Source of the DNA: Clostridia bacterium
Lineage (GTDB): Bacteria; Bacillota; Clostridia; TANB77; UBA1234
DNA: 64,000 nt
Assembly: GCA_900753975.1 (NCBI GenBank)
Contig: CAAEBC010000038.1
Coordinates: 268-64,267, forward strand
Reading direction: 5' to 3'
This document shows positions 34,423-38,913 of the stretch, piece after piece (the stretch's first letter is position 1; every line of letters starts with the position of its first letter). The notes beneath the pieces are model-generated. The model ran no database searches. It was given only the letters and a program-made list of their open reading frames with translations, and was not told the DNA's origin. Both the position numbers and the translations under genes were made by a program.

Positions 34423-35736
34423 ATGGCAAAATACGAAGACAAAAAAACAGTTAGATGTTCTTTTTGTGGTAAAGCACAAGAAAATGTTAAACGTATAATT
34501 GCAGGACCAGGTGTTTATATTTGTGATGAATGCGTTGGTTTATGTTCAAATATCATTGAAGAAGAGTTTGAGGAAATGTGCACAGAAGAAAAAGCACAAG
34601 AAAATCAGTCTCTTAGTCCAAAAGAAATAAAAGAAAAATTAGATGAGTATGTTATCGGGCAAGATGAAGCAAAGAAATCTTTAGCTGTTGCCGTATATAA
34701 TCATTATAAAAGAATAAATAATATTGATGCAAAATCTGATGACGTAGAAATTCAAAAGAGCAATATATTAATGCTTGGTCCTACTGGATGCGGAAAAACA
34801 TATTTAGCACAAACGTTGGCTAAGATATTAAATGTACCTTTTGCTATTTCAGATGCTACAGCTCTTACAGAAGCTGGTTATGTTGGTGAGGATGTGGAGA
34901 ATATTCTTTTAAAACTTATTCAAGCAGCTGACTACGATATAGAAAAAGCACAAAAAGGTATTATTTATATAGATGAAATAGATAAGATTGCCAGAAAATC
35001 TGAAAACGTTTCTATTACAAGAGACGTAAGTGGTGAAGGTGTTCAACAAGCATTACTTAAAATTATTGAAGGTACTGTTGCATCTGTTCCACCACAAGGA
35101 GGAAGAAAGCATCCACAACAAGAATTTATTCAAATTGATACAACAAATATTTTGTTTATTTGTGCAGGTGCTTTTGAAGGATTAGATAAAGAAATTGGTG
35201 CAAGAATAGGAAAAACAGGTTTAGGTTTTGGAGTAGAAGTACCTAAAAAAGATGATAGTAATGTTTCGCAGATGCTTGAAAAACTATTACCACAAGATTT
35301 GGTTAGATACGGTCTTATCCCAGAATTTATCGGAAGATTACCAGTAATAACTACTGTTCAACCACTTAGCAGAGAAGCATATATCGATATACTTTCTAAG
35401 CCTAAAAATGCACTTTTAAAACAATATAAAAAGCTTTTTGAATTAGATGGAGTAAAGCTTGAATTTGATAAAGATGCACTAGAAGCTATAGTAGATAAAG
35501 CTATTGAAAGAAAAACAGGTGCAAGAGGTTTAAGAGCTATACTTGAAGAAACAATGCGTGATGTTATGTTTGAAATTCCTACAAATAAAAATATTGTTGA
35601 ATGTGTTATAACACGTGAAACTGTAAAAAATGGGGCAGAGCCAAAATTAACTTATAATGAAGTGAAAAAGGCAACTAGAAAAACGAATAAATCTGTAAAA
35701 GAGAAAGAGGAAAGTAACGTAGAATCAGCATCATAA
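34423..35736 (+). CDS. clpX: ATP-dependent Clp protease ATP-binding subunit ClpX
   Basis: Zinc ribbon CSFCGK...CDEC, Walker [17 protein letters not shown]. Confidence 0.97.
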
Positions 35737-35747
35737 GGAGGTCGCTT

Positions 35748-35927
35748 ATGAACGAGTACAAAGTAGGAGATATAGTAGAAACAAAAAAGCAACATCCTTG
35801 TGGCAGTAAGACTTGGGAGATTACCAGAGTGGGAGTTGACTTTAAGTTAAAGTGCACAAATTGTGGTCATGTAATAATGGTAGAACGAGAAAAGGCACTT
35901 AAGATGATTAAAAGAATAGCAAATTAG
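35748..35927 (+). CDS. DUF951-family small protein (59 aa; not in the ORF track)
   Basis: AAGGAGG RBS before the ATG at 35748. MNEYKVGDIVETKKQHPCGSKTWEITRVGVDFKLKCTNCGHVIMVERE matches the C-x-C...C-x2-C pattern of DUF951. Confidence 0.7.
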   Translation: MNEYKVGDIVETKKQHPCGSKTWEITRVGVDFKLKCTNCGHVIMVEREKALKMIKRIAN

Positions 35928-35982
35928 TTAAAAGAAAAACTTGGTTTGCGATAAGCTTTGCAAAATGTATAATAAATAAAAA

Positions 35983-36251
35983 TACAAAGTGGTGACGAAA
36001 CTTTCTTTCGCCACCACTTCGCTTAATATATGTCAAGTAGAAGCACATACCAAACATATATTGATATGTGCCTACTACATTTCAGACGCTTCCATACAAA
36101 GCTCCTTTTAAAAATATATTTCTACTAACTAGATACATTACCGGACACTACAAACCATCAACGGAATCTTCTCCTCCAGCCTAGTGAACACTACAACTTG
36201 ATATCAGTGGAACCTCTTCCATCTGTACCAGCCATCAATATCTGTTAGATT
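35983..36251 (-). ncRNA. Candidate small RNA of about 270 nt (orphan promoter-to-terminator unit, class not recognised)
   Basis: Bounded by the near-consensus promoter at 36258-36286 and a minus-strand terminator (hairpin 35988-36018, perfect only on the minus strand through a G-U pair, then a U-run). Only 6-14 codon ORFs are present. Contains imperfect tandem repeats ending in UGUAGUG. Confidence 0.5.
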
Positions 36252-36257
36252 GTATTA

Positions 36258-36286
36258 ATTATAGCATTGTTTACATAAAAAGTCAA
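36258..36286 (-). promoter_or_regulatory. Near-consensus sigma-A promoter driving the candidate sRNA
   Basis: The minus strand reads TTGACT, 17-nt spacer TTTTATGTAAACAATGC (TGn extended -10), TATAAT. Confidence 0.65.
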
Positions 36287-36460
36287 TATATTTTTATTAA
36301 ACTTTATTATATAGAATTATTATTCAAAATTAAATTAGCCAAAAGCTTCATATTACTTTTTCTTAAATTAAAATAGGAATTATAATATAAAAAAAAGCAG
36401 GTAAAATGAAATGAACCCAAAATGTTAGACAAAAAGTTTAACAAGGAGGGTTCATTTTTT

Positions 36461-36967
36461 ATGTCAAAATATTCAAAAGAATTTAAAATTAAAGTAATTG
36501 AATATTACTTGAGTCATGATTATGGGTATATGAAAGTAGCAAAACATTTTAAAATTAATTATGAACATTTAAGAAAGTGGGTAAAAAAGTATCAAGAGCA
36601 TGGATTAGAAGGATTATCAAGAAATAAAATAGCATATGATGGAAATTTCAAACAATATGTAGTAGAATATATGCATGAAAACCATTTATCATTAGCAGAA
36701 ACATGTATACAATTTAATTTAGGGAATCATTATGTTGTTAGTAGATGGGAACGCATATATTATGAGGAGGGACCACAAGCGCTATACAAGGAGCAACGTG
36801 GCAGAAATAAGAAAATGAGTTCTAAACCAAGAAAAAAGAAATTATCTAAAGAAGTAGAAGAAGATTTAATTGCAGAGAATCAAAGACTCAGAATGGAGAA
36901 TGAATACTTAAAAAAATTAAATGCCTTAGTTCAGGAAAGAATCAAGCGAGAGAACAAGAGAAAGTAA
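36461..36967 (+). CDS. IS3-family transposase OrfA (HTH)
   Basis: AAGGAGGG RBS. Translation MSKYSKEFKIKVIEYYL... plus a leucine-zipper-like C-terminus. The A7 slippery run at 36910-36916 lies near its end. Confidence 0.88.
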   Translation: MSKYSKEFKIKVIEYYLSHDYGYMKVAKHFKINYEHLRKWVKKYQEHGLEGLSRNKIAYDGNFKQYVVEYMHENHLSLAETCIQFNLGNHYVVSRWERIYYEEGPQALYKEQRGRNKKMSSKPRKKKLSKEVEEDLIAENQRLRMENEYLKKLNALVQERIKRENKRK

Positions 36968-36999
36968 TTGTTGTCAATGAATTAAGGCAGAAATATAGC

Positions 37000-37821
37000 T
37001 TGAAAGAATTATTAAAATTAGCAAATATAGCAAAAAGTACATTTTATTACCATTTAAACAATCTAAATAAAGAAGATAAATATAAAGAATTAAAAGATGA
37101 GATATTCTCAATATTTCATGAAAACAAAGGAAGATATGGTTATAGAAGAATAACATTGGAATTAAAAAATCGAGGATATAAAATAAATCATAAAACAGTT
37201 TCGAGATTAATGAATATGCTAGGATTAAAAAGTATACAAAGACCAAAGCGAAGATACAGTTCATATAAAGGAACAGTAGGAAAAATAGCAAATAATTTAT
37301 TAAAAAGAGATTTTGGGGCTGATAAACCAAATGAAAAATGGGCTACAGATATAACAGAATTTAAAGTAAATAACGAAAAGTTGTGCTTATCTCCAATAGT
37401 AGATTTATTTAATGGAGAGGTAGTAAGCTTTAACTTATCGAGACATCTAGTGTTTCACCAAATAGTAGATATGCTAGAGAAAGCTTTTAGTAAAATACCA
37501 AATAATACTAATTTAATACTACACTCAGATCAAGGATGGCAATATCAAATGAAGCAATATCAGTATTTATTAGAGCAAAAGGGAATTAGACAGAGTATGT
37601 CAAGAAAAGGAAATTGTTTAGATAATGCTTGTGCAGAGAACTTTTTTGGAATATTAAAATCAGAACTTTATTACATAAAAGAAAAAGAATATAAAAATAT
37701 AGAAGAATTAGAAAAAGATATAATTGAATATATAGAATATTATAATAACAGAAGAATTAAGAGCAAACTAAAAGGAATGTCCCCTGTTCAATACAGAGAA
37801 CATTCCCAGTTAGTAGCCTAA
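37000..37821 (+). CDS. IS3-family transposase OrfB (DDE catalytic domain), probably made as an OrfAB fusion by a programmed -1 frameshift at 36910-36916
   Basis: It is in the -1 frame relative to orfA, and that frame is open from upstream of the A7 run. Motifs WATDITEF, HSDQGWQY, DNACAENFFGILKSE. Confidence 0.85.
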   Translation: MKELLKLANIAKSTFYYHLNNLNKEDKYKELKDEIFSIFHENKGRYGYRRITLELKNRGYKINHKTVSRLMNMLGLKSIQRPKRRYSSYKGTVGKIANNLLKRDFGADKPNEKWATDITEFKVNNEKLCLSPIVDLFNGEVVSFNLSRHLVFHQIVDMLEKAFSKIPNNTNLILHSDQGWQYQMKQYQYLLEQKGIRQSMSRKGNCLDNACAENFFGILKSELYYIKEKEYKNIEELEKDIIEYIEYYNNRRIKSKLKGMSPVQYREHSQLVA

Positions 37822-37875
37822 TTTATACTGTCCAACATTTTGGGTTCAGTACAAAAAACCTGCTTTTTTAGGTAT

Positions 37876-38850
37876 TTAATTCGAAAGTGCGTAACGTCGC
37901 ACAGTGGCAAGAGAGATAGAAAACTGCTCGGAAATTTCACTTAAAGACATGCCATTCAAGTAAAATTTCTTAATTGCTTTTTTCTCTTCCTCACTCAAGC
38001 GCTCACCGGTATATCTGCTTTGGCTTCGATCGTTAGCTTCTCGCATCATTTCGTCGGGTATGAGCTTTCGTACGAAATTGGAAGACTTCTTGATACGTAC
38101 TGCAATACTATCGACCGAATAACCAAGCAAATACATTTTGGTTACTAAGTTTCTGATATACTCATCAGGGGTTGTAGTTGCGAATCTCAAGAATTCCATA
38201 GGAAACTTGTAATCCTTGAGCAAATCTTCCACAAGAAGATTTCCATGTCGATTAAGCTCAATGTACAAGTGCAAGAGAGTAGAGACATTGGCATCCTCAA
38301 AGGTCTTGGCAATTAGGCTGAAATCGATTTGTTTGCCAGGAGTATTTTGAGAAATAGTATCTGTTTTTTGTTTGTTATCCTCCTTTTTTACGGATGTTTG
38401 AGGAGGTACTTCCTCTTCGAGCTGTGGCAGAGGTGCCTCAGAATCTTTAATAGTGTCACAAGATACTTTCTTTCCTGTTTGTCTAAGTTCAACACCATTC
38501 TCAATCAGAATATTTCTTAGAGTCTGAAAAGAAAGGTGGAACCTTCTTTGCAAGTTTTTGAATGAGGTTGTTCGATATTCTCGAACAATTCTCTGTATCT
38601 CTTCATCAGAGATTTTTTTATACTTGCTAGAATGTACTAAATCAGAGTCATTTCCTTCACCTGAGTAATCTGAATTTTCGGATTCATCCTCATCATCTTC
38701 TTCGTCAGTACTAGTTTCTTCATGCGATTCCGTAGCTACCTTGTTGAACCGTTTGGAATAGGATGCCTTGATTACAATTCTCTCTTTTTCTCCAACGGTG
38801 ACAGAAACGCAAATTCCGTCTTCGGCTTTGATCAGGAAATTACAATTCAT
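37876..38850 (-). CDS. Hypothetical DNA-binding protein with two HTH-like segments and an acidic Ser/Asp/Glu-rich linker (325 aa)
   Basis: AGGAGGG RBS 5 nt before the ATG at 38850. HTH-like segments are SFKNLQRRFHLSFQTLRNILIENG and the C-terminal MSLSEISEQFSISLATVRRYA (sigma-70 region 4-like). G+C-richer than its neighbours (26 G+C in nt 38041-38100). Confidence 0.65.
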   Translation of the reverse strand: MNCNFLIKAEDGICVSVTVGEKERIVIKASYSKRFNKVATESHEETSTDEEDDEDESENSDYSGEGNDSDLVHSSKYKKISDEEIQRIVREYRTTSFKNLQRRFHLSFQTLRNILIENGVELRQTGKKVSCDTIKDSEAPLPQLEEEVPPQTSVKKEDNKQKTDTISQNTPGKQIDFSLIAKTFEDANVSTLLHLYIELNRHGNLLVEDLLKDYKFPMEFLRFATTTPDEYIRNLVTKMYLLGYSVDSIAVRIKKSSNFVRKLIPDEMMREANDRSQSRYTGERLSEEEKKAIKKFYLNGMSLSEISEQFSISLATVRRYALSN

Positions 38851-38913
38851 ACAATCCCTCCTAATTTTTTGTCTTACATTTGTTCGACGCGTATGTAACA
38901 ATAAACCATGACT

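Follow-up and report, generated by a model that had tools for sequence, protein, structure and literature searches.

A conserved promoter-to-terminator unit beside the DUF951 gene of gut Clostridia: a candidate structured small RNA with a six-codon mini-cistron

The locus and its transcription signals

The 64,000-nt stretch of DNA analysed here (the window) comes from an uncultured gut Clostridia bacterium. Around the unit under study it carries tig, clpP, clpX, the DUF951 gene, the unit itself on the opposite strand, an IS3-family element, a gene for a 341-aa protein, and polC. The DUF951 gene (35748-35927, plus strand) had been named in the original prediction as the convergent neighbour, and its identity is clear (PF06107, E=3e-28); the literature on DUF951 yielded unrelated mentions only. 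DUF951 and the upstream polC are the only conserved neighbours of the unit.

Upstream, the IS3-family element of 1447 bp (36407-37853; orfA 36422-36967, orfB 37000-37821) has TGAAATGAACCCAAAATGTTAGACA and TGTACTGAACCCAAAATGTTGGACAG as its imperfect terminal inverted repeats, is flanked by a 3-bp AAA target duplication, and has landed in the loop of the hairpin that terminates the 341-aa gene. Metagenome contigs of the same species (L003-L005) lack the element, so its insertion is recent. With the element removed, the DNA reads as the 341-aa gene, its own terminator, about 90 nt of A/T-rich DNA and then the promoter of the unit. The 341-aa gene (37876-38901, minus strand) encodes a sigma-70 region-4-type helix-turn-helix (HTH), and its product matches the NCBIfam entry for the HTH of Cbp1, a CRISPR repeat-binding protein, below threshold (39 bits, where the cut-off is 140). 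Two haplotypes exist upstream of the unit within this one species, with either a 324/341-aa gene or, at the same position, a 109-aa gene (L002, L006-L010 and L101, in the last of which the protein is called as 134 aa), and a sigma-70 region-4-type HTH forms the C-terminal end of both proteins. The haplotypes cease to be homologous just upstream of the -35 box, and the unit is near-identical in both. This break, together with the upstream gene's own terminator, indicates that the unit is discrete and separate from the upstream gene.

A near-consensus extended -10 promoter, followed about 270 nt later by a strong terminator that pairs fully in the minus-strand RNA alone, had been proposed from the sequence, and both elements were recovered. 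The predicted sigma-A-type promoter (36258-36286, minus strand) matches the consensus at 11 of 12 positions, with the -35 box TTGACT at 36286-36281, an extended -10 TG at 36266-36265 (-15/-14, inside the 17-nt spacer) and the -10 box TATAAT at 36263-36258, and places the transcription start near A36251. The pattern TTGAC-N15-TG-N-TATAAT occurs once in the window and in none of 100 shuffled sequences, and the elements TTGAC, TG and TATAAT are unchanged in all nine species described below. The intrinsic terminator (35974-36022, minus strand) consists of a 17-pair hairpin (36022-35984) and a U-rich tail (35983-35974; AUUUUUAUUU), lies about 275 nt from the promoter, is detected on the minus strand only, and is the sole terminator-like site of the region. 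Its arms are 93% complementary as DNA; the one mismatch is a G.U pair in the minus-strand RNA, and an A-U pair in the same-species variant L005. The same terminator probably ends the convergent DUF951 transcript too. The predicted whole transcript folds at -89.2 kcal/mol (z = -5.8 against shuffles), and the raised G+C content that had been remarked upon is real, at 0.43 for 36150-36249 against about 0.30 in the surroundings. From these promoter and terminator signals, the unit would be an independently transcribed, discrete element.

One statement about the unit, that none of its ORFs exceeds 14 codons, has to be corrected. A 49-codon ORF (35908-36057, minus strand) starts in the loop of hairpin P4 (described below), crosses the terminator and passes the predicted end of the RNA, and GTG or TTG starts give ORFs of 15-18 codons; none of these has a Shine-Dalgarno (SD) sequence. 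The 49-codon ORF is almost certainly spurious, because it is preceded by no SD and is not conserved.

Distribution, selection and the fold of the 5' domain

Homologues of the unit were found in nine species, that of the window and those represented by L012, L011, L092, L095, L094, L096, L102 and L105. All are uncultured gut Clostridia of one clade, with ClpX at least 85% identical to that of the window, and in every one the unit lies between DUF951 and polC and converges on DUF951. A scan with the DUF951 protein, one genome per species, gave 80 loci, with the unit in the two closest only (L011 and L012); the further members came from a ClpX search, from sister-lineage contigs and from a DNA-pattern scan of metagenomes. 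The first metagenome pattern gave no match, and the second returned one same-species contig and one new species. No member was found in about 85 other DUF951/clpX loci of related Clostridia with nhmmer (single sequence and profile) or the covariance models R1 and R2, and the two models found nothing further in about 550 kb of related loci. The same tools, nhmmer and covariance models, found no second copy within the window. The unit is absent from the viral contigs, phage genomes and plasmids searched, where the sole match was a promoter-like stretch of 37 nt on a plasmid of Ruminococcus albus. Lineages with 83-87% ClpX identity and another gene order (L093, L098-L100 and L103) are without the unit. 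In L093, L103 and L104 (ClpX 86-87%), pyrH, frr and uppS come immediately after clpX, and the DUF951-RNA-polC segment is missing from that position; this gene order implies a rearrangement that separates them from the RNA-bearing species.

Across the nine species the conserved span runs from the -35 box to hairpin P4. The 5' 130 nt or so of the RNA have a mean column identity of 90%, and a 48-nt core, CUGRUACAGAUGGRAGAKGUUCCACUGAUAUCAAG..UAGUGUUCA, is almost unchanged. For comparison, the DNA of the DUF951 gene is 78-83% identical between species, a value that falls to about 50% at third codon positions. Purifying selection on the unit is strong, and the unit is conserved well beyond the synonymous sites in its neighbourhood. 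No ORF beyond a few codons is conserved on either strand in the nine species, and specifically none of 20-60 aa; the antisense ORFs differ in every species. A pseudogene or protein gene on either strand was considered and rejected, given the lack of a conserved ORF and the invariant synonymous positions of a short frame in helix P2.

RNAalifold gave the same consensus model from eight and from nine sequences, in which the 5' domain (36125-36248, minus strand) is a three-way junction of about 125 nt. Helix P1 (36248-36238 paired with 36136-36125) begins 3-4 nt from the predicted 5' end; it is formed by CUAACAGAUAU with GUAUCU-bulge-GUUAG and encloses the hairpins P2 and P3. P2 spans 36235-36193, with the apical part UGGAA-GAGG-UUCCA at 36221-36208, and P3 spans 36190-36142, with the apical part GGA-GAAGAU-UCC at 36174-36163. 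The A/U-rich linker that follows (36108-36124) is unpaired in the consensus and varies in sequence and length, with indels between species.

The three-way-junction fold is supported by covariation. In the nine-sequence alignment 95.9% of the cells are standard pairs, and 11 pairs have changed on both sides, where column shuffles give 5.8±1.4 (0/500 shuffles reach 11) and slid controls, in which the partners were moved by 1-3 columns, give one to four. Read on the opposite strand, the same pairs are standard in only 84% of the cells, owing to 64 G.U cells, which marks the minus strand as the functional one. The best-supported helices are P3, with four of nine pairs double-changed, and P4, with six of 16. 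In P3, GAAAC/GUUUC is exchanged for GAAAU/AUUUC and AAAAC/GUUUU, and CAC/GUG for CAU/AUG; at the base of P2, G.U becomes U.G in four species. P1 is largely invariant, with C-G replaced by U-A once (L011) and a bulge that changes position. The apical halves of P2 and P3 are invariant and hence outside the reach of covariation, and the signal as a whole is drawn from closely related sequences of one narrow clade. Within-species SNPs in the helices are changes from G.U to A-U. The covariance model R1 scores 127-150 bits in every member. The proposal of an orphan promoter-to-terminator unit, a candidate novel small RNA, has thus withstood the collection of homologous regions and the covariation test.

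The internal tandem units that had also been proposed did so only in part. The elements GGCUGG..UUCC..UUGUAGUGU do occur twice in the window, at 36233-36188 and 36181-36145, with none expected, but neither Tandem Repeats Finder nor a repeat finder reports an array. The second unit corresponds to P3, and its likeness to P2 (GGCUGG, UUGUAGUGU) is particular to the species of the window; since the other eight species lack its GGCUGG and UUGUAG (having, for example, GAACUG...UUUGAGUGUCC), the repeat is largely species-specific. The supposed degenerate third unit, UGUAGUAGG, is in fact the end of the mini-ORF and the foot of P4. A tandem repeat was accordingly dropped as the organising feature.

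The six-codon mini-cistron and hairpin P4

A six-codon mini-ORF is the sole conserved coding-like feature of the unit. As the original prediction had it, a perfect SD precedes the start codon (AAGGAG-N6-AUGGAAGCGUCUGAAAUGUAG), and a hairpin follows directly. The SD AAGGAG lies at 36102-36107 and the putative mini-cistron, AUG GAA GCG UCU GAA AUG UAG (MEASEM*), at 36075-36095, both on the minus strand. The AGGAG is kept in all nine species amid the variable linker, at a spacing of 5-8 nt from the AUG, and every species has an AUG, exactly six codons and then a stop (UAG, UAA or UGA). The hexapeptides themselves are all different: MEASEM, MEVSEM, MMYSAM, MEETAM, MEDSAM, MYDATM, MYLAAK, MYCATM and MYLTTM. 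Substitutions are spread over the three codon positions without bias (6/6/7), and codons 2-5 vary freely, with no conserved regulatory or stalling codon among the nine species. The mini-ORF itself is free of indels, which are found in the SD-AUG spacer and the P4 loop. The lack of in-frame stops in codons 2-5 is by itself only marginally unlikely by chance (P ~0.05).

Hairpin P4 (36037-36078, minus strand) has 16 pairs, with 97% of its cells paired. Its 5' arm begins at the last base of codon 6 and includes the stop codon, whose third base covaries with its partner in P4 (G-C three times, A-U four times). The absence of peptide conservation and of codon-position bias, together with the fixed length, indicates with moderate confidence that what has been conserved is the loading of a ribosome, the distance to P4 and termination within P4, and not the peptide, in a frame whose translation is predicted from its signals.

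Directly 3' of P4 lies the tail UUGACAUA (36029-36036, minus strand), and a tail CUUGA(C/U)AUA follows P4 in six of the nine species. Further downstream the species diverge. Clear terminators after P4 are present in six of nine, and they are non-homologous between species. Those of L094 and L012 are long G+C-rich stems, L096 and L102 have a weak A/U-rich hairpin or a U-rich tail of P4 instead, and L011 has no terminator 3' of P4. That terminators have been replaced and are nevertheless clear in most species argues that selection maintains a terminated, stand-alone RNA. Since they are non-homologous, no conserved antiterminator can exist. In no species does the 3' arm of P4 with its tail pair with the 5' domain (UCAAGUUGUAGUGUUC) better than shuffled sequences do (z -2.0 to +0.6), and such pairing is far weaker than P4 itself.

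Known RNA classes, a proposed mechanism and its alternatives

The original prediction could match the unit to no riboswitch or RNA class, and database searches agree. At gathering thresholds, Rfam 15 finds only two tRNAs in the window, far from the unit. At E<=10 over 35700-36500, the best matches reach 12-23 bits against thresholds of 45-176; none is relevant, and all of them rest on the terminator hairpin. ARAGORN has no match over 35700-36500. Neither a known family nor a decayed gene, either of which would have spoken against a novel RNA, was found. Judged by its sequence and by these searches, the unit would found a new small-RNA family, so far of one clade.

Three groups of known systems are among the closest. 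Dual-function small RNAs are exemplified by SR1/SR1P of Bacillus subtilis, RNAIII/hld of Staphylococcus aureus, SgrS/SgrT and Spot 42/SpfP. Like these, the unit is stand-alone, with its own predicted promoter and terminator, a structured part, a ribosome-binding site and a short conserved ORF that would be translated. Unlike them, its ORF has six codons only, of which the start, length and stop are conserved and the amino acids are not, and its structured part, a 125-nt three-way junction, is conserved in sequence much as a riboswitch would be. Leader-peptide attenuators include the erm, cat and ARE-ABCF leaders, the leaders of amino-acid operons, and the trans-acting trp attenuator RNA of Sinorhizobium, rnTrpL/peTrpL. 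The layout of the unit resembles theirs: an SD and a tiny ORF overlap a hairpin in all nine species, a terminator mostly comes next, and a ribosome would melt the hairpin. The unit differs in having no stalling codons, no conserved antiterminator pairing and, in eight of nine species, no downstream gene, the only gene there being the convergent DUF951; it also has an additional large conserved 5' domain. The original prediction had likewise found no gene for the RNA to regulate in cis. The third group comprises riboswitch-bearing or riboswitch-derived small RNAs, such as EutX/Rli55 with its AdoCbl riboswitch and SreA/SreB, and orphan structured RNAs of Firmicutes such as the raiA motif, all of which are in Rfam. 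The unit shares with them a conserved folded 5' domain, with P1 near the 5' end, followed by a terminator and no gene behind. As in riboswitches, that domain has covariation and invariant junction and loop nucleotides; a consistent gene association, as a riboswitch in a 5' UTR would have, is missing. The unit further differs from this group in lacking any Rfam match at E<=10 and in carrying a translatable mini-cistron.

Further classes were compared as well. Like the CsrB/RsmZ sponges, the unit has several GGA motifs, and the five counted agree with the earlier tally of at least five; a protein-sponge role, which had been suggested, is not borne out, because they are too few and mostly lie in stems. 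The conserved ones sit in the P2 and P3 stems and in the SD, and not in repeated hairpin loops or spacers. tmRNA similarly joins a structured RNA to a short frame ending in a stop codon, but the unit has no tRNA-like domain, and its frame has an SD and an AUG of its own. Nor does the unit fit a type I toxin-antitoxin system, whose conserved small hydrophobic toxin ORF, overlapped by an antisense RNA, has no equivalent among its ORFs. Binding sites of ANTAR or CsrA proteins were considered and rejected, as loop sizes and sequences seem not to fit the usual definitions. Base-pairing targets were sought among 53 translation-start regions of the window in a scan of low power, and the best duplex energies were no better than those of shuffled RNA. 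By analogy, its mode of action may be closest to that of a dual-function small RNA, or of a leader-peptide attenuator turned free-standing, and its 5' part looks like an aptamer; the unit is a member of none of these families.

The reading that we favour, at somewhat better than an even chance, is that the unit is a genuine stand-alone structured small RNA of about 275 nt, transcribed from its predicted promoter, with a translated mini-cistron, and acting in trans. The near-consensus promoter would drive it constitutively, and it would act on something other than a downstream gene. Because it is conserved at the nucleotide level even inside helices, the 5' domain would most likely be the part that does the work, serving as a platform to which a protein or a small ligand binds specifically. 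Translation of the mini-cistron would most likely be an end in itself: a ribosome would load at the SD, terminate six codons on, and have to unwind the 5' arm of P4, so that ribosome traffic would toggle P4 between closed and open. The opening of P4 could affect the stability of the RNA, the choice of its 3' end, or the exposure of the pyrimidine-rich 3' arm. The hexapeptide would probably be non-functional.

A more specific version of this reading is speculative, and we give it only a small chance. In it, the three-way junction is an orphan sensor within a stand-alone RNA, and its output is linked to the ribosomes that load onto a six-codon "dummy" cistron and so open P4, making the unit a translation-gated riboregulator acting in trans; or else the RNA is a subunit of a clade-specific housekeeping ribonucleoprotein. 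We know of no described counterpart of a translation-gated, trans-acting riboregulator. The near-perfect promoter, the nucleotide-level conservation and the covariation-supported junction are marks of an important RNA. What is unusual is that a frame is held at exactly six codons while its peptide drifts, with the stop codon inside a hairpin. If such a frame is translated only to remodel the RNA, it would be a clear example from nature of translation serving to switch the structure of an RNA that acts in trans. To our knowledge, there has been hardly any study of small RNAs in uncultured gut Clostridia; the reach of the finding is limited by the narrow clade that holds the family so far.

Foremost among the alternatives, though unlikely, is that the unit is an orphaned cis-regulatory leader, in which an aptamer-like junction is joined to a ribosome-dependent attenuator and the downstream gene has been lost in most species. 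Its layout is that of leader-peptide attenuators and riboswitch leaders, and the U-rich tail directly after P4 in several species could make P4 a weak first terminator. In L011, where no terminator follows P4, the next gene on the same strand encodes 60 aa. This gene (MSKKNKQLLKQYKETPKARAERVRNEAGMFRPRVETPKTVYSRKGKSYRKEGKDYGIEIP; L011 665-1033) lies between the RNA and DUF951, and its stop codon is inside its own terminator hairpin. The very basic protein, which has no Pfam, NCBIfam or PDB sequence match, may resemble the rescue factors ArfA/BrfA. However, the gene has a promoter-like site of its own, a higher G+C content and, behind it, three copies of a 29-nt G+C-rich repeat (TTGAAACAAGGGGACGGAGCAAACTTTCA), for which reasons it looks like an insertion. 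Also against an orphaned leader are the strong purifying selection in the eight species that have no gene to regulate, the replaced yet clear terminators, and a mini-ORF without conserved regulatory codons.

An improbable alternative is a conditional antisense regulator of clpX-DUF951, in which either the 5' domain or ribosomes translating the mini-ORF would govern read-through past P4 and the terminator, giving RNA antisense to both genes. The convergence of the unit with DUF951 in all nine species speaks for it, as does the fact that in eight of them one shared hairpin of about 50-60 nt alone separates the two. Set against this are the strength of the terminators, both the 17 pairs in the window and the long stems of L094 and L012, and the gene and three repeats that intervene in L011; moreover, synteny in a narrow clade may be merely inherited.

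Marginally less probable still is a small-peptide locus, in which the RNA would be the mRNA of the 6-aa peptide or of a 13-15-aa frame in P2, MEEVPLISSCSVH(..). In its favour, SD, start, length and stop are all conserved for the 6-codon ORF, and the frame MEE/DVPLIS(S/R)(C/F)SVH is open in all nine species. Yet the 6-aa sequence drifts without codon-position bias, and the 13-aa frame starts, without an SD, at an AUG within the stem of P2. The 39 nt of that frame are near-invariant, synonymous sites included, whereas the third positions of DUF951 are about 50% identical, which points to constraint on the RNA. The C-terminus of the P2 frame varies, giving 13 to 31 aa. Of the two mini-ORF endings, CSVH and CSVR, that had been singled out as possible peptides, CSVR is not conserved and the CSVH frame persists through invariant nucleotides alone. 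That the unit has no function, being a chance promoter-terminator pair or the decaying remnant of a protein gene, is conceivable for an element known here from its sequence, but can be dismissed on the compensatory base changes, the conserved promoter, the absence of a conserved long ORF on either strand and a conservation so far above the third codon positions of DUF951 that it excludes both.

Two minor observations concern single contigs. In L005 (5898-8180), polC is called as two ORFs, one of 658 aa and the remainder, which reflects either a frameshift or an assembly error. In L105 (4340-4396), the G+C-rich inverted sequences GGGACGG/CCGTCCC occupy the contig end and closely precede the RNA promoter; together with the repeats of L011, which they resemble, they may form a small family of mobile repeats with this intergenic region as its target.
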